Source: a virus | Taxonomy: Duplodnaviria > Heunggongvirae > Uroviricota > Caudoviricetes | Strand: one strand, 5' to 3' | Virus record (IMG/VR): IMGVR_UViG_2529293069_000011 | DNA length: 34,435 bases | Shown: positions 12,001 through 18,000 of the stretch, piece after piece | Numbering within the stretch: the first letter of the stretch is position 1 | Layout of the letters: every line of letters begins with the position of its first letter | Made by a program: the position numbers

Positions 12001-15000
12001 AACGAGTTGCGAGAGTGTCTGGTAAGCAGCTGCCGGACCCTCCATCCAGAATGACGCAATACGTGAGCGTCGGGGATCACCATAACGACTACCATCCGCA
12101 TTGATGGATTCACCATCCCGCAACCAGACCCCACGTCCGTTCAGCTCACGTTTTTGTTCAGGCATAATCCGTCCTGAACAGGAAGGACACTGAATATAAG
12201 CCGCCTCACTTGCCAGCACAGGATCGGCAATATCACGGAAACCAGCAACCACATCGCCGCAGGGCTGAAAATACTCACCACAGTGTGGACAGGGCCAGTA
12301 CCAGCGACGGCGATCGCCACGGTTATAGAGCGACAGGATCCCCGTGGTTGGTGGAGCCTCATGCGGTGAAGTCCGTCGCCATTTCACATCCTTCACATCC
12401 CTGCCGGGGGAACTCTCCACCAGCGTCATACCACTGGACATAAATGTGGTGGTACGTTTTGAGGCAAGAGAGAAGGCATCCCCCTCACCATCAATATCTT
12501 CCGGAAAACGGTCATAATCCGTCAGCGCCACGCATTTATAATCTGATGAGGACATGATATTGACTGACGGCCAGCCGATTTTCAGGTAGTTGCCAGCAAG
12601 GAATGTTCTGTCATAAACGTTGTTGTCATTTTTGTTCGGACTCAGGCGACTGACCACTTCCGGGCTGACGCGAAACGTTCTGGCGAGTCGTTTTTTGGAG
12701 TGTTCGCGGGCTTTTTCCTCCGTCATCTGAATGATCAGCATATCCGCAGGATCGCAAATCACGTTGTAAATCACCCAGCCGTCAATCAGGCCGATAGTCT
12801 TGCCGGTTCGTGCCGGGCCAACAAATATCACTGCGTCGTATTCACGCGAGGCCAGGCAGTTCATCGGCTCAATAACATACGGTGCCACCAGCGGATCCCA
12901 CGGGACTGAGTTCCCGGCCCCCATGGGCACCCGCATATACTGAGCAACGGCATCAGCAACCCGCATTCGTCTCGGTGCGCGAAGGATATAACCTGAATCG
13001 GTTCGTGCTGCCTTTGCGGTTTCCTGATTCAGCATTACTCCTCCTGCTGTAATTCCTCCTCATCATCCGCACCTGCTTCGGTCACCCGCAGGGCTATCTG
13101 ATCGCGCAGATCATCAATAATGGACTGAACACGGCTCACAGCGGCAGGCTGCAGACCACAGTCACGTTCCAGAATATCCGGTAATGTCTCCAGCACCTGC
13201 ACGACCGCTTTTGCCCAGATGGCAAACTCCCGTCTGACATCACTGGCCGGAATGAGTTGTGCCGTTTCCTGTTCGAACTTAAGACGCTCACGTTCAGACT
13301 GATACCAGGCTTTGCGTTCATGTGGATCCATTTCGCCCTCAGCAACCGGCGGTGGTAACCCCATAAATTCAGTCAGAATATCGGTCAACCGGTATAGCTT
13401 GAGTTTGTCATGTCCACCAGCGGGACGAATGTTTTTCAGTCTTGCCACGACAGTCTGGCGGTGCAGACCAGATAAAGCCGCCAGTTGATTAATATTCAGC
13501 ACCAGGTTTTTCAACTCATGATCCATATTTCCTCCGGAGAGCTTTAAACATGCATCGTGCGAACAACTTTAAGAAAACGCGTTCGATGTCGAACAAAAAA
13601 CACTCAATTCGACATACAAAAAACAAATAACCATTAATAATCAATAAGATGCAAAGATGATGGTGGCCGATAAAAATGCAAAAACTAGCCTTTTTCCGCG
13701 ACGCTCCCGCCCCGTGGCAGGCCACCCCACCGGGAGGAGCCGTCAGCCTGAAAGCCATGACGAACGTCTGATACAGCCCTTGCATGAATGGCATCGGGAT
13801 AATCCAGAAAGGAATAGCATCGACCCACAAGAATCTGTGTGAGTGTCCTGTTTCTTCCACCCCCGCACAGGACTGGCGAGCATGAGGGACAAACCCGCGA
13901 ATCATTAGCGCGGTAAAAACCCGGTGTGCATCGTTTTTGATTATTCCCGCACACTCGCGCAGAAGGAGTTCCCCGTCGGGCTACGGTCATGGTTAATGCG
14001 GGAATACAGCGACGATACAGCGCATGATGTGTCAGGCTTGAATACCTTTATCCGTTAAAAGGGATATCAGTTAAGTTATCCCGTGTAGGGTATAAGCCAT
14101 TATCAAAGCCACTCTGTAGGGAGTGGCTTTTGTAATGGCAATAAAAAAGCCCCGCGAATGCGAGGCTAAATCCAGGTATTTTTAATGACTGGCTCTTATC
14201 TCAACGCAGCCCCTTACCGCGCGCCAGATGCTCAATATCAAGCATCAGCAATGAGATGTTTAACCATGATTCACTCCAGAAGTGAGCACCACCCTGTCTA
14301 CAGAGCCAGATGTGAAGGATGATGAGTAAAATTATCGCTATCATCGAAGGCATTGCGTCCTGATGTATTCCTGAAGCGTTCTCAGTGCTGTTTGGTCGCG
14401 GATAATTCCGTCCCGGATACCGAGAACGTTTCGTCCAGCAACTGGAGAGAGTTCGACGGTGGCATCATTGCCCATGCCGGAGGCGCTGGAGGTTTCGTCT
14501 GAGGATGGCACAGGGCATTTTCCTTTGACGAACACCCGACCACCATTATCAAGCTTGCGCCGAAGAGCATCATTTTTAGCTTTCGCATCAGCTAACTCCT
14601 TCGTGTATTTAGCATCGAGTGCATCAGCAGCACGCTGGCGCTGCTGCATGTCAGTAATGGTGGCGGTCGCCTGCTTCAGCTCACTGACTTTTTTATCACG
14701 CTGTTCTTTATAGGCGATGGCGTTATCACGGTAATGATTAACCGCCCATGACAGGCAGACGATGATGCAGATAACCAGAGCGGAGATAATCGCGGTTACT
14801 CTGCTCATTGTTGCCCCCACAAACAGACTTCACGCTCAATCTCGCGGCGAGTCATCAGCCCTTTCCATTGCTTACCGCCAGCGTATGTCCAGCGCCGTAG
14901 CTGATCACATGCGCCTTTGATATCACCCTGGTTTATTTTGCGAAGAAGCGTCGATGTTCTGAAATTACCAGCGCCCACGTTGTAAACGAACGAGTAAAGA

Positions 15001-18000
15001 GCGCCGCGCGTTGTTTCCGGTATATCGACTTTGATGTACGGGTTAATTTGTCTGGCGACCGTGGCAAGGTCTTTATTCAGGAGGGCTTTGCATTCTGCTT
15101 CGGTATACGTTTTACCGGGAATGATGTCTTTTCCGGTGTGTCCGTGACATACAGTCCATACGCCAACGATATCTTCGTATGGTATGTAGCTGACACCTTC
15201 CAGGCCATCGTCACCACTCGGACCAGTGATGAGCACAGACGCTATGGCAACAGCCCCACCACCAATAGCAGCAGCAACAGCCTTGCGTAATGATGGCGAC
15301 ATTATTCACCTCTCGCAGCCTTACGCTTATCTTCTTTAATCTTGAAATAAAGGTTTGTCAGATACGTCAGCAAGCCAAACACCAAGCTACCCAATACGCC
15401 TATTGCCACCCACTGGGATGGGGAGACTTTGTCCAGCAACTGCAGTAGCCAGTATCCCGTCCCCACCGCTGACGTGGTGTATGACACACCTGTTGTTATT
15501 TTTTCCATCTGGTACATACCCCGTCTCCCGTTATCCGGAAGCTGACAACAATAAAAAGCCACCAGTTAATTCCTGATGGCCCTGATGCATAAACGTCATA
15601 ATACCTGACTGTTATGATTGACAATAATGATAATGTTTATATAGAAAGGTTCCCGATGTGTGTTACATATCATTTCTCCACGGGGAATATCCCCACGCCA
15701 GCGCAGACTCTTTTACCCGTTCTCTTCTGCGCTGGCTCTTTTTTATTATGCTGCTGCATTTACCTCTGGCACCATGCTTTCTATCTCAACACAATACGTG
15801 GTACTTCTTGTAACCAATATCATAACGATTAATCGACATAGAATTTCTCCCGTGTACAGGAACAGAGTTAAAAAGCCGGAACCGGAATCAAATCACAGGA
15901 TGACCATCTGCCAGTGGCAGGTCATAAAAAAAAGGCCGCGCCATGCGCAGCCAGAACTCACAAGGAAAATGATAGAAGGAAATAACATTAGTGATGTACG
16001 CATGGCGCCTCCCGCTAAGTTCTGCAATGATCAAACAGAACTCGCTACGTGCCCTTAAAACTCGATCATTTAGCCCCTCCAAGGAGGATTCACCATGCGG
16101 TTGATTTTTTAATAAACAGTAAACAAAAAAGTCAAGAATTATTCATTCTGTTCTTTCATCATCGGCCACAGCAATACCACAATGCCGCAGACCAGAGCGC
16201 CATCAGTCAGTACCAACATTATCCTGCTGGTGAAATCCATCATCACCATCACTAAAAGCAGGATCACAACAGCAAGCAGACACAGTTTATAAAACAATGT
16301 TCAGGAAACGCATTCAGCATGCCTAAGGTTCTATTCCTACGAATAGCCAACTTGCAACTTAAAATATTATTTATGCAGCCAATTAAATTCTGGTCCTTAC
16401 AATATCAACCTGAAGATTCTTATCTTGTGCTGATTGATAAATGACAAACCTTTTACTACCTGCATTGAAAGAAGTAGACAAAACCAGACAATTATCATAA
16501 CGAGCAAGAACATAATACCAACCATCATTATAATTAATCATTTCATATTCTTTCTTAAACTGTGGTTTGTAATATCCTGTCAGAAATGAAAAAAGCCAGA
16601 AATATGCCACAAAAGCAATCATCACAATCTCAAAAAAATGTTTTTTTATAAATGGCTTATCATAGAAGCATGATACCGATAAAAATCGCCCATAAGATCT
16701 TATCGAAATTGTAACCGCCAGCGCAATCGCTGCTGACAGTAGCAAAAGAGGTACCTGAATCTTCTGTCTCAATATAGAAAACTCAATAATTGCCGGCACA
16801 AACAATAATTCCACAGCAAAATAAAGGCGAAATACATTTAGCTCTTGCATAGAATGTTTTCTTTTCACTGCGAAAAAGAATACAACACCAATACCCCAAC
16901 CGATAAGAAATATAGCAATGACGATAACTGCAAAAAATAAACTTCTGGCAACATCATCAACACCTGCACCTACAATCCACCATGGGAAGCCGTAGTAAAA
17001 AGAAGTACCCCATCCATAGAAATAAGCACTCCCCCATCCAAGGCATCCCATGTAGGCAATAAAAAGTGAAGAACTCCTGAGCAGCGCACCATCCTTCATA
17101 ACCACCCCAATACAAGATGATAACATTGGCTTACAACTCATAACAAAAGCAATTCAATGCCGTCAAGAGGTTACAGGCTAAAAAAACTCTATTACATAGC
17201 AGCCAGCATGTTTACCGTACAAGTACAACTCAGGGCATAAAAAAAACCCACTCGGCAGCGGGTTTATACATTTTTTACAACATACCAAATTTGCATGAAG
17301 TATATGGCTTTTAATCCAGTTTTGCAATATTTTGCTGTAAAAATGCTGCCTTTTGTTTTGAACGTGTTCTCGTCACAAGCAATAAAGCATCACTATCAAG
17401 CTGTAGAAAAATGTGCTTCATTGCAACCCAGCGTTCAGTAAATGTCTCGGACCAGTTTTTTGTTGTCACTCCCACCAATGATGCCAGTGTCTGGTATTCA
17501 TAGGCCTCACGCCCTGCAAGTTCGCTCTTCACATCCTGTGCAGCCAGCCAGATTAACGTCTTCAGGCGATCCAGTGTCTTACCTGCAATTTTTCTGTTAC
17601 TTAACAAATCTTTAAACTCGCTCCATGCCCATTGCGTTATGGTGACCTGATGCCCCCATCGAACGCTTTCGCTGTAACACCAAAGCAACCATGCTTTCTG
17701 ATGTTCATCGAGAGACAAAACCGCGCGGCGCCATGAAGAGGTTGAGAATTCAACCGGGCTGACCAAAGCAATGGATGAACCTTTTGCGTACGACTGCTTA
17801 CCGGAAGTCGGCGTATTATCCAGCGTAATCATCTTGCCAGTTACCACATCCAGAATGCGCGGCTTCTTTCGTTTGTATGTACCAGTATCAAATTGTGCAT
17901 GCTCCTGCCAGGCTTCGAGCTGGCCTTTCGTTGCTCCGTTCAAGTCAGCAGTAGCTGCCATAAGTTGCTCACGAACATACTGTAAATATTGGGTATTCAT

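Follow-up and report, generated by a model that had tools for sequence, protein, structure and literature searches.

A phage 21-type pinholin and SAR-endolysin lysis cassette predicted in a lambdoid prophage of the Escherichia coli O55:H7/O157:H7 lineage

How would a lambdoid prophage of E. coli open its host cell, by the pinholin and membrane-tethered endolysin of phage 21 or by the large-hole route of lambda? This question is raised by a 34,435-nt stretch of viral DNA (IMG/VR virus record IMGVR_UViG_2529293069_000011, Caudoviricetes; the whole stretch is called the window below), in which a phage 21-type lysis cassette had been predicted at positions 14341–15517. The interval proved exact, 15517 being the first base of the Met1 codon of the holin gene S and 14341 the last base of the stop codon of the spanin gene Rz; all four genes, S, R (endolysin), Rz and Rz1, lie on the minus strand, which the original prediction had not given, and coordinates below refer to this strand unless marked otherwise. 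We regard it as highly probable, on the sequence comparisons described here, that these genes form the lysis cassette in the late operon of a lambdoid prophage from the O55:H7/O157:H7 lineage, and that the cassette would act by a route made up of a pinholin, a signal-anchor-release (SAR) endolysin and spanins.

S (15302–15517) encodes a class II (phage 21-type) holin, the long form of which has 71 residues (beginning MYQMEK), and RefSeq names an identical 216-nt coding sequence 'class II holin family protein'; R (14805–15302) encodes a 165-residue SAR endolysin, a muramidase of the GH24/T4-lysozyme type; Rz (14341–14808) encodes an i-spanin of 155 residues; and Rz1 (14382–14588), located inside Rz, encodes the 68-residue precursor of an o-spanin lipoprotein. 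The Pfam matches of all four were well above the curated cut-offs: S matched PF04971 'Bacteriophage P21 holin S' (1.1e-32, over profile positions 1–63 of 64), R matched PF00959 (1e-45), Rz matched PF03245 (2.5e-28, residues 30–154) and Rz1 matched PF06085 (2.5e-21). The PHROGs calls agreed, with holin for S (phrog_9876 and phrog_20), endolysin for R, and Rz-like spanin both for Rz (phrog_13, 1.3e-74) and for Rz1 (phrog_3198, 5e-26). Compared with four related phages, the codon changes were 21 synonymous to 10 non-synonymous in S and 22–32 synonymous to 5–10 non-synonymous in R, indicating purifying selection on both genes; the family E-values together with this third-position-biased substitution exclude a chance origin of the cassette.

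As reference we used phage 21 itself (OL657228.1, 39866–41036), the annotation of which lists S21-71 as antipinholin and S21-68 as pinholin, together with a SAR endolysin and an i-spanin that has the o-spanin embedded in it, in the same gene order and with the same embedding of Rz1 as in our cassette. The closest counterpart is R, identical to R21 at 156 of 165 positions (94.5%) in the alignment that had been proposed as a check, the nine differences being P2S, I18V, N31D, K43E, M61I, L62P, K68E, M98T and I159V. The predicted Gly/Ala-rich SAR domain is borne out: residues 8–26 (15225–15281), with R6–K7 in front, are 63% Gly/Ala/Ser/Thr with a mean Kyte-Doolittle hydropathy of 2.09 (63% and 2.11 in R21), and the conservative I18V is the single change within this segment. 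The catalytic residues E35, D44 and T50 (Glu-8aa-Asp-5aa-Thr; codons E35 to T50 at 15153–15200) are likewise present, unchanged with respect to both R21 and RrrD, the endolysin of the E. coli K-12 cryptic prophage DLP12. Indeed, R differs from RrrD at seven positions over residues 1–165 (~96% identity), an identical R protein is named 'lysozyme RrrD' in RefSeq, and a search of PDB sequences matched residues 1–165 of R to both RrrD (4zpu, 1.9e-107) and the phage 21 lysozyme (3hde, 1.3e-106). The SAR endolysin Lyz of phage P1 is under disulfide-isomerisation control. As the only cysteines of R are at 52, 71, 132 and 160, leaving the SAR segment free of cysteine, the regulation of R should be of the R21 type, by refolding, rather than by P1-type disulfide caging; the SAR-endolysin principle itself is common to R and P1 Lyz (PMC9636201).

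An N-terminus of this kind invites the alternative that it is a cleaved signal peptide, and hence that R is a secreted lysozyme, that S forms large holes of the lambda type, or both. SAR endolysins can in fact also work with large-hole holins (PMC12642591). In R we found one AxA-like motif, A-I-A at residues 19–21, that could in principle be read as a signal-peptidase site, and rejected it: it falls within the hydrophobic core, not behind it, and it is also present in R21, the model uncleaved SAR endolysin, which was crystallised as the full-length 165-residue chain (3hde; a 140-residue chain, residues 27–165, is in PDB 3hdf). The SAR segment remains part of the active enzyme. Given its near-identity to R21, cleavage of R is very unlikely; from the 94.5% identity, R would be exported by Sec, stay uncleaved and be freed on depolarisation. 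Nor does S resemble a large-hole holin, being a member of the phage 21 holin family with two transmembrane domains (TMDs), not three. The cassette has in common with lambda the dual-start idea (S105/S107) and the embedded Rz/Rz1 layout; lambda itself, however, combines a three-TMD, large-hole holin with a soluble transglycosylase, and the lambda-type R of Sf6 lacks the hydrophobic N-terminus found here. A lambda-style or secreted-lysozyme route is thus, in our estimation, extremely improbable.

The resemblance of the holin to S21, also part of the original prediction, holds for the family assignment, for the two TMDs and for the sequence, S being identical to S21-71 at 53 of 71 residues (74.6%). 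EssD-named holins, after EssD of DLP12, fall in the same family at ~82% identity. The short form of S, 68 residues from Met4 (MEKITTG..., 15302–15508), begins at the position of the S21-68 start and is presumed to be the active pinholin; it opens with M-E-K, S21-68 with M-D-K, and in S TMD1 follows directly on this very short cytoplasmic stub. TMD1 (residues 8–27) is 55% Gly/Ala/Ser/Thr with a mean hydropathy of 0.42 (60% and 0.16 in S21); weakly hydrophobic and SAR-like, it is predicted to be able to exit the bilayer. TMD2 (about residues 36–58, mean hydropathy 1.6) shows three conservative changes only (A37V, L47F and F49L), the charged C-terminal tail is conserved, and the glycine-zipper-like motif G40xxxS44xxxG48 is kept (GVLGSLVFG at residues 40–48); the S21 numbering of this motif reportedly goes back to work of the Young laboratory. 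For S and for Rz, a PDB sequence search gave nothing beyond chance-level matches.

Homology to the phage 21 proteins therefore supports the predicted pinholin/SAR route over lambda-style large holes, and it is the best-supported mechanism because the SAR segment of R differs only at I18V and the E/D/T residues are unchanged; small holes, release of R from the membrane and no signal-peptide cleavage would be expected from near-identity to experimentally studied proteins. Following the pathway described for phage 21 (PMC12642591, PMC9636201), RNA polymerase modified by Q would start from a promoter just past the Q gene and read through several terminators to give an S-R-Rz/Rz1 transcript, on which translation of S, R and Rz would be linked through overlapping stop and start codons. 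R would be exported by Sec and then be held in the inner membrane, without activity, by its weakly hydrophobic SAR segment, while S, with its two TMDs, would build up in the same membrane until, at a set time, TMD1 exits the bilayer and TMD2, by way of G40xxxS44xxxG48, assembles nanometre-scale pinholes that collapse the proton-motive force. Depolarisation would then free R to refold with E35, D44 and T50 in place and degrade the murein, after which the complex of Rz in the inner membrane and the lipoprotein Rz1 in the outer membrane would be free to fuse both membranes.

Several observations weigh against this reading. Of the 20 residues of TMD1, eight are substituted between S and S21; the extension of the long form of S reads M-Y-Q where that of S21-71 reads M-K-S, so that the extra basic Lys is absent; identity to phage 21 falls to 35–50% in the periplasmic domains of Rz and Rz1, although full-length family matches are kept; and the prophage of the O55:H7 strain CB9615, which carries an identical cassette, has pseudogenes (a frameshifted bet and a capsid gene interrupted by a stop codon), so that the cassette may rarely serve virion release. 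The last three, which bear on the regulation of S, on the origin of the spanins and on the state of the prophage, are taken up below in that order.

The dual-start pinholin of the original prediction stands as far as the start codons go, with in-frame ATGs at 15517 and 15508; the antiholin-type basic residue is missing from the extension between them. A Shine-Dalgarno-like GGGAG (15525–15529) precedes Met1 by 7 nt and Met4 by 16 nt, and the layout GGGAG-N7-ATG-N6-ATG is equal in the S leader and in phage 21, where the ribosome-binding site is annotated. In a survey of 92 cluster representatives of the S family with a complete N-terminus, Met1 was kept in 87 and Met4 in 86, counts that for Met1 are inflated by gene callers favouring the longest open reading frame (ORF), while residues 2 and 3 varied; both starts look maintained across the family. 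A basic residue is found in the extension of 46 representatives (MKSM, MYRM, MLRM, MHRM, MMKM and MKFM), and 39 of the 85 MxxM representatives have none (MYQM in 31, MDQM and MNQM in 3 each, MHQM and MFQM in 1 each). The EssD-type holins among those listed start with MKSM or MKFM, and thus have a basic residue, unlike S. Annotation of the S start is inconsistent between Met1 and Met4, and several phage records use Met4. A start-codon-regulating RNA structure was not established at S, the fold of the leader, though significant (z-score -3.4), being dominated by a terminator-like hairpin.

The antiholin behaviour of S21-71 has been put down to its extra basic residue, which slows the exit of TMD1 (PMC9636201; PMC13056207), and mutagenesis showed that positive charge at the N-terminus delays TMD1 translocation and pore formation, and that negative or hydrophobic residues hasten it (bioRxiv 10.1101/2021.04.20.440580). 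Because M-Y-Q brings no positive charge, TMD1 may flip with much the same ease in the long form of S as in the short one, so that the long form would be a second holin rather than an antiholin, or the upstream ATG may be the sole start; the many family members without a basic residue, three of them with an Asp (MDQM), are in keeping with this. The conservation of Met1 and Met4 next to variable residues 2 and 3, and a Shine-Dalgarno spacing equal to that of phage 21, suggest instead that two products are still made and still matter, and three added residues, one of them the polar Gln, could slow TMD1 exit without charge. On balance we find it possible, if somewhat unlikely, that the S products are not a holin/antiholin pair; this would touch regulation only, and is compatible with lysis by the pinholin/SAR route. 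For S, then, a regulatory role of the two start codons is no more than putative in view of the M-Y-Q extension, the antiholin step carries much less confidence than the pinholin/SAR mechanism itself, and the uncharged extension implies that timing control may differ from that of phage 21. One could speculate, tentatively and with the odds against it, that S alleles with uncharged extensions (~45% of representatives) time lysis independently of charge, or that, having lost an antiholin control of their own, they depend on some further factor.

Rz has an N-terminal TMD at about residues 4–22 (hydrophobic maximum 4–18) and periplasmic cysteines at 98 and 153; Rz1 has the lipobox VVGC with Cys19, a Ser at +2 (Ser20), seven prolines in the 49 residues after Cys19, and Cys27. 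Rz Cys98 and Cys153 and Rz1 Cys27 align with conserved cysteines in the phage 21 proteins; in the lambda spanins, periplasmic cysteines form intermolecular disulfides. As had been predicted, Rz1 is wholly embedded in Rz in the +1 frame, its start offset by 220 nt (mod 3 = 1) and its end 41 nt before the Rz stop; like its phage 21 counterpart, it has an AAGGAG 7 nt ahead of the start codon. The protein is identical to the Sakai 'phage lipoprotein precursor' BAB34244; RefSeq leaves it unannotated in the identical CB9615 locus. Overall identity to phage 21 is 91/152 (59.9%) for Rz and 29/58 (50%) for Rz1, which has 68 residues here and 60 in phage 21, and in Rz it is unevenly spread, with 80% over alignment columns 1–84 and 35% beyond. 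The description of the cassette as phage 21-type does not extend to the periplasmic halves of Rz (35%) and Rz1 (~50%), which represent a different allele. The C-terminal parts of the two spanins have moved away from phage 21 in step, as would be expected of segments that share their coding DNA and that also interact with each other.

The gene junctions had been described as ATGA and TGATG overlaps. The ATGA is indeed present between R and Rz, but the S/R junction reads TAATG, a one-base overlap of TAA and ATG; the letters of both junctions are the same in phage 21. The sole TGATG at a start codon is that of Rz1 (14590–14586), and its TGA ends no gene. Another ATGA overlap occurs at the Rz stop (14344–14341), with the second ATG of a downstream ORF of 50 codons, discussed below.

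At the DNA level the divergence from phage 21 is stepwise: identity is 63–77% across S, 85–100% across R and the first ~90 nt of Rz, ~75–78% over the next ~180 nt of Rz and ~50% over the rest of Rz/Rz1, and there is no similarity past the Rz stop, where phage 21 has bor and this prophage has the 50-aa ORF. Phages Ayreon, vB_EcoS-569R4, Kati and PhiR70_1 have 91–94% DNA identity from S Met4 to the end of the 50-aa ORF, with the same Rz/Rz1 allele and trailing ORF as here; their S genes start with MKSM and have a phage 21-like TMD1. As the similarity to these phages starts exactly at the S Met4 codon, this codon marks a mosaic boundary. JLK-2012, by comparison, has a 96% identical cassette with the same S leader and upstream region and the MYQM start. 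From these comparisons the cassette reads as a mosaic, with R and the 5′ half of Rz close to phage 21 (~90–100% in DNA), with an S allele more distant from it, and with periplasmic Rz/Rz1 parts and a 50-aa ORF from another, Ayreon-like allele.

The trailing ORF (14201–14353; 50 residues, or 47 from the second ATG) would encode an N-terminal hydrophobic helix and matched phrog_11822 of unknown function (4.5e-35). It corresponds to Sf6 gene 65 and to an ECs0822-like ORF of Sakai Sp3, and mEp460 shares at least this ORF with the cassette. We found it in 44 phage records, with an Rz/spanin gene under or beside it in nearly all of the 40 listed; the copy here departs from most relatives at two residues, with A23 in place of D23 and W30 in place of R30. 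It could be a real fifth gene of the cassette, a small single-pass membrane protein that modulates lysis, e.g., as a regulator of holin or spanin. Its ATGA overlap with the Rz stop and strongly hydrophobic N-terminus would suit such a role, the ORF is open in those 44 records and in >60 protein clusters, and it goes with the last 12 Rz codons also when the remainder of Rz is different; the match of Sf6 to our cassette, for example, is limited to the last 12 Rz residues and this ORF. Against this, it had no family match in Pfam, NCBIfam or PADLOC, its homologs are all at least 75% identical and confined to enterobacterial prophages, its stop position is variable in several members, and its codon changes show no third-position bias (1–2 synonymous versus 2–4 non-synonymous codons, a weak coding signal); a linked terminator or recombination-boundary sequence could instead explain the conservation. 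We therefore consider a fifth cassette gene doubtful. Coupled to Rz by ATGA, this membrane ORF is one conceivable candidate for the additional timing factor suggested above for S alleles with uncharged extensions.

This is a well-known cassette that many genomes already carry in annotated form without a base of difference, and identical copies occur in hundreds of sequenced O55:H7/O157:H7 prophages. Positions 14200–15700 of the window have 100% DNA identity to prophages of O55:H7 strains CB9615 and RM12579, O157:H7 strain 493/89 and others. Among 5426 complete E. coli genomes some match was found in 5200, with coverage of at least 80% in 1147, and 597 records of the phage collection match the cassette. 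The CB9615 prophage, which is Sakai Sp3-like and adjoins ybhC, has the annotations 'class II holin family protein', 'lysozyme RrrD' and 'lysis protein'. Window positions 1–20835, the late half, are 99% identical to this prophage and the early region (~20836–32322) is a different mosaic; because of the latter, no complete E. coli genome in the collection covers >66% of window positions 9500–34435.

The condition of the CB9615 prophage raises a further alternative, namely that the prophage is decaying and that its cassette, kept as a remnant or domesticated, now mainly serves the host in envelope turnover, vesicle production or explosive content release, as has been proposed for essD-rrrD-rzpD/rzoD of DLP12. 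This nearest complete-genome prophage has, besides the frameshifted bet and the internal-stop capsid gene, a truncated second Q; R is ~96% identical to DLP12 RrrD; and the DLP12 module, which is both conserved and transcribed, has an effect on vesiculation (PMC7918800). The DLP12 module, however, sits in a fixed cryptic remnant, whereas the cassette here is in a near-complete prophage, with an open capsid-region ORF (7244–9463) and an otherwise complete late region, and the same cassette type occurs in sequenced phage genomes. Nothing in the sequence separates a host role from a phage role, and we judge a domesticated cassette quite unlikely. The ORF at 7244–9463 is a ClpP-like protease/major capsid fusion, open in the window and annotated with an 'internal stop' in CB9615 (26430–28457 of the CB9615 locus). 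The window's prophage may be less decayed than its relative in CB9615.

The surroundings of the cassette show the usual lambdoid late-operon arrangement. Upstream is the Q antiterminator gene (17311–18000, 229 aa; PF06323, 1.1e-91; phrog_304), and a consensus scan placed a candidate late promoter, TTGCAA-17-TATACT (17299–17327), overlapping the 3′ end of Q; this is the presumed source of the cassette transcript. A tR'-like terminator (17244–17265; consensus scan and sequence) lies downstream of the candidate promoter, and a further terminator-like hairpin was found by the scan at 15934–15952. A third, with a T-run, is right upstream of S (15555–15583; consensus scan and fold, its function being putative), and another, AGCCTCGC-ATTC-GCGGGGCT with a T-run (14148–14167), closes the cassette. 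These four terminator-like hairpins are on the coding strand of the late operon and compare with an expectation of 4.8 ± 2.3 on both strands of the whole scanned region. Related phages have signals at matching places: Ayreon has an annotated terminator right before S, at the same relative position though different in sequence, and another corresponding to the cassette-closing hairpin; JLK-2012 has nearly the same hairpin upstream of S; and in phage 21 the annotated pR' is followed by a terminator and then S, a similar layout.

Between the promoter region and S, phage 21 has tRNA genes, and here their place is taken by the gene of a 252-aa multi-TM protein (16383–17141; phrog_1521 of unknown function, outside any Pfam family) and that of a 52-aa DUF3927 protein (16139–16297; phrog_1470, 'TciB-like inhibition of cell division or resistance to colicin'); no tRNA gene was found in the window, as against the tRNAs upstream of S in phage 21 and Sf6. 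Downstream of the cassette come a DUF1441-type small terminase gene (13035–13526) and then the large terminase gene, and the ~620 nt between the closing hairpin (14167–14148) and the small terminase gene held no convincing gene. Rfam at gathering thresholds gave a single match in the window, Lambda_thermo (the cIII thermoregulator; 32369–32427, plus strand, 88.5 bits), far from the cassette.

Other genes in the window were noted in passing. Just upstream of Q, an LpxR-family lipid A deacylase gene (18475–19434, plus strand; PF09982, 7e-40) is inserted as a moron in the opposite orientation; on its far side, the CB9615 prophage has 72 nt left over from a second antiterminator gene. In the nin region, an ORF at 20894–21541 that shares some sequence with the beginning of NinG has an HNH_3 endonuclease domain and, weakly, an AP2 domain; it is absent from the CB9615 prophage. 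A 617-aa ORF (23153–25006, plus strand), opposite in strand to the nin-region genes, adjoins an IS30-family transposase gene (21717–22868, minus strand) and has a Ser/Thr-rich N-terminus, a repeated LTLNDFLDN motif and hydrophobic stretches in mid-protein. This ORF had no match in Pfam, PADLOC or NCBIfam, and is a 'hypothetical protein' at >99% identity in Shiga toxin-producing E. coli genomes including O145:H28 and O157:H7 LSU61.

Beyond correct annotation, i.e., the Rz1 omitted in CB9615 and the disputed start of S, the identification of this cassette matters little. Nevertheless, the very common MYQM-type S allele offers a natural test of charge as the cause of antiholin function. Like many prophages of the enterohaemorrhagic E. 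coli lineage, this one should lyse its host by the pinholin/SAR-endolysin route, which is relevant to the release of phage and of cell contents on induction.

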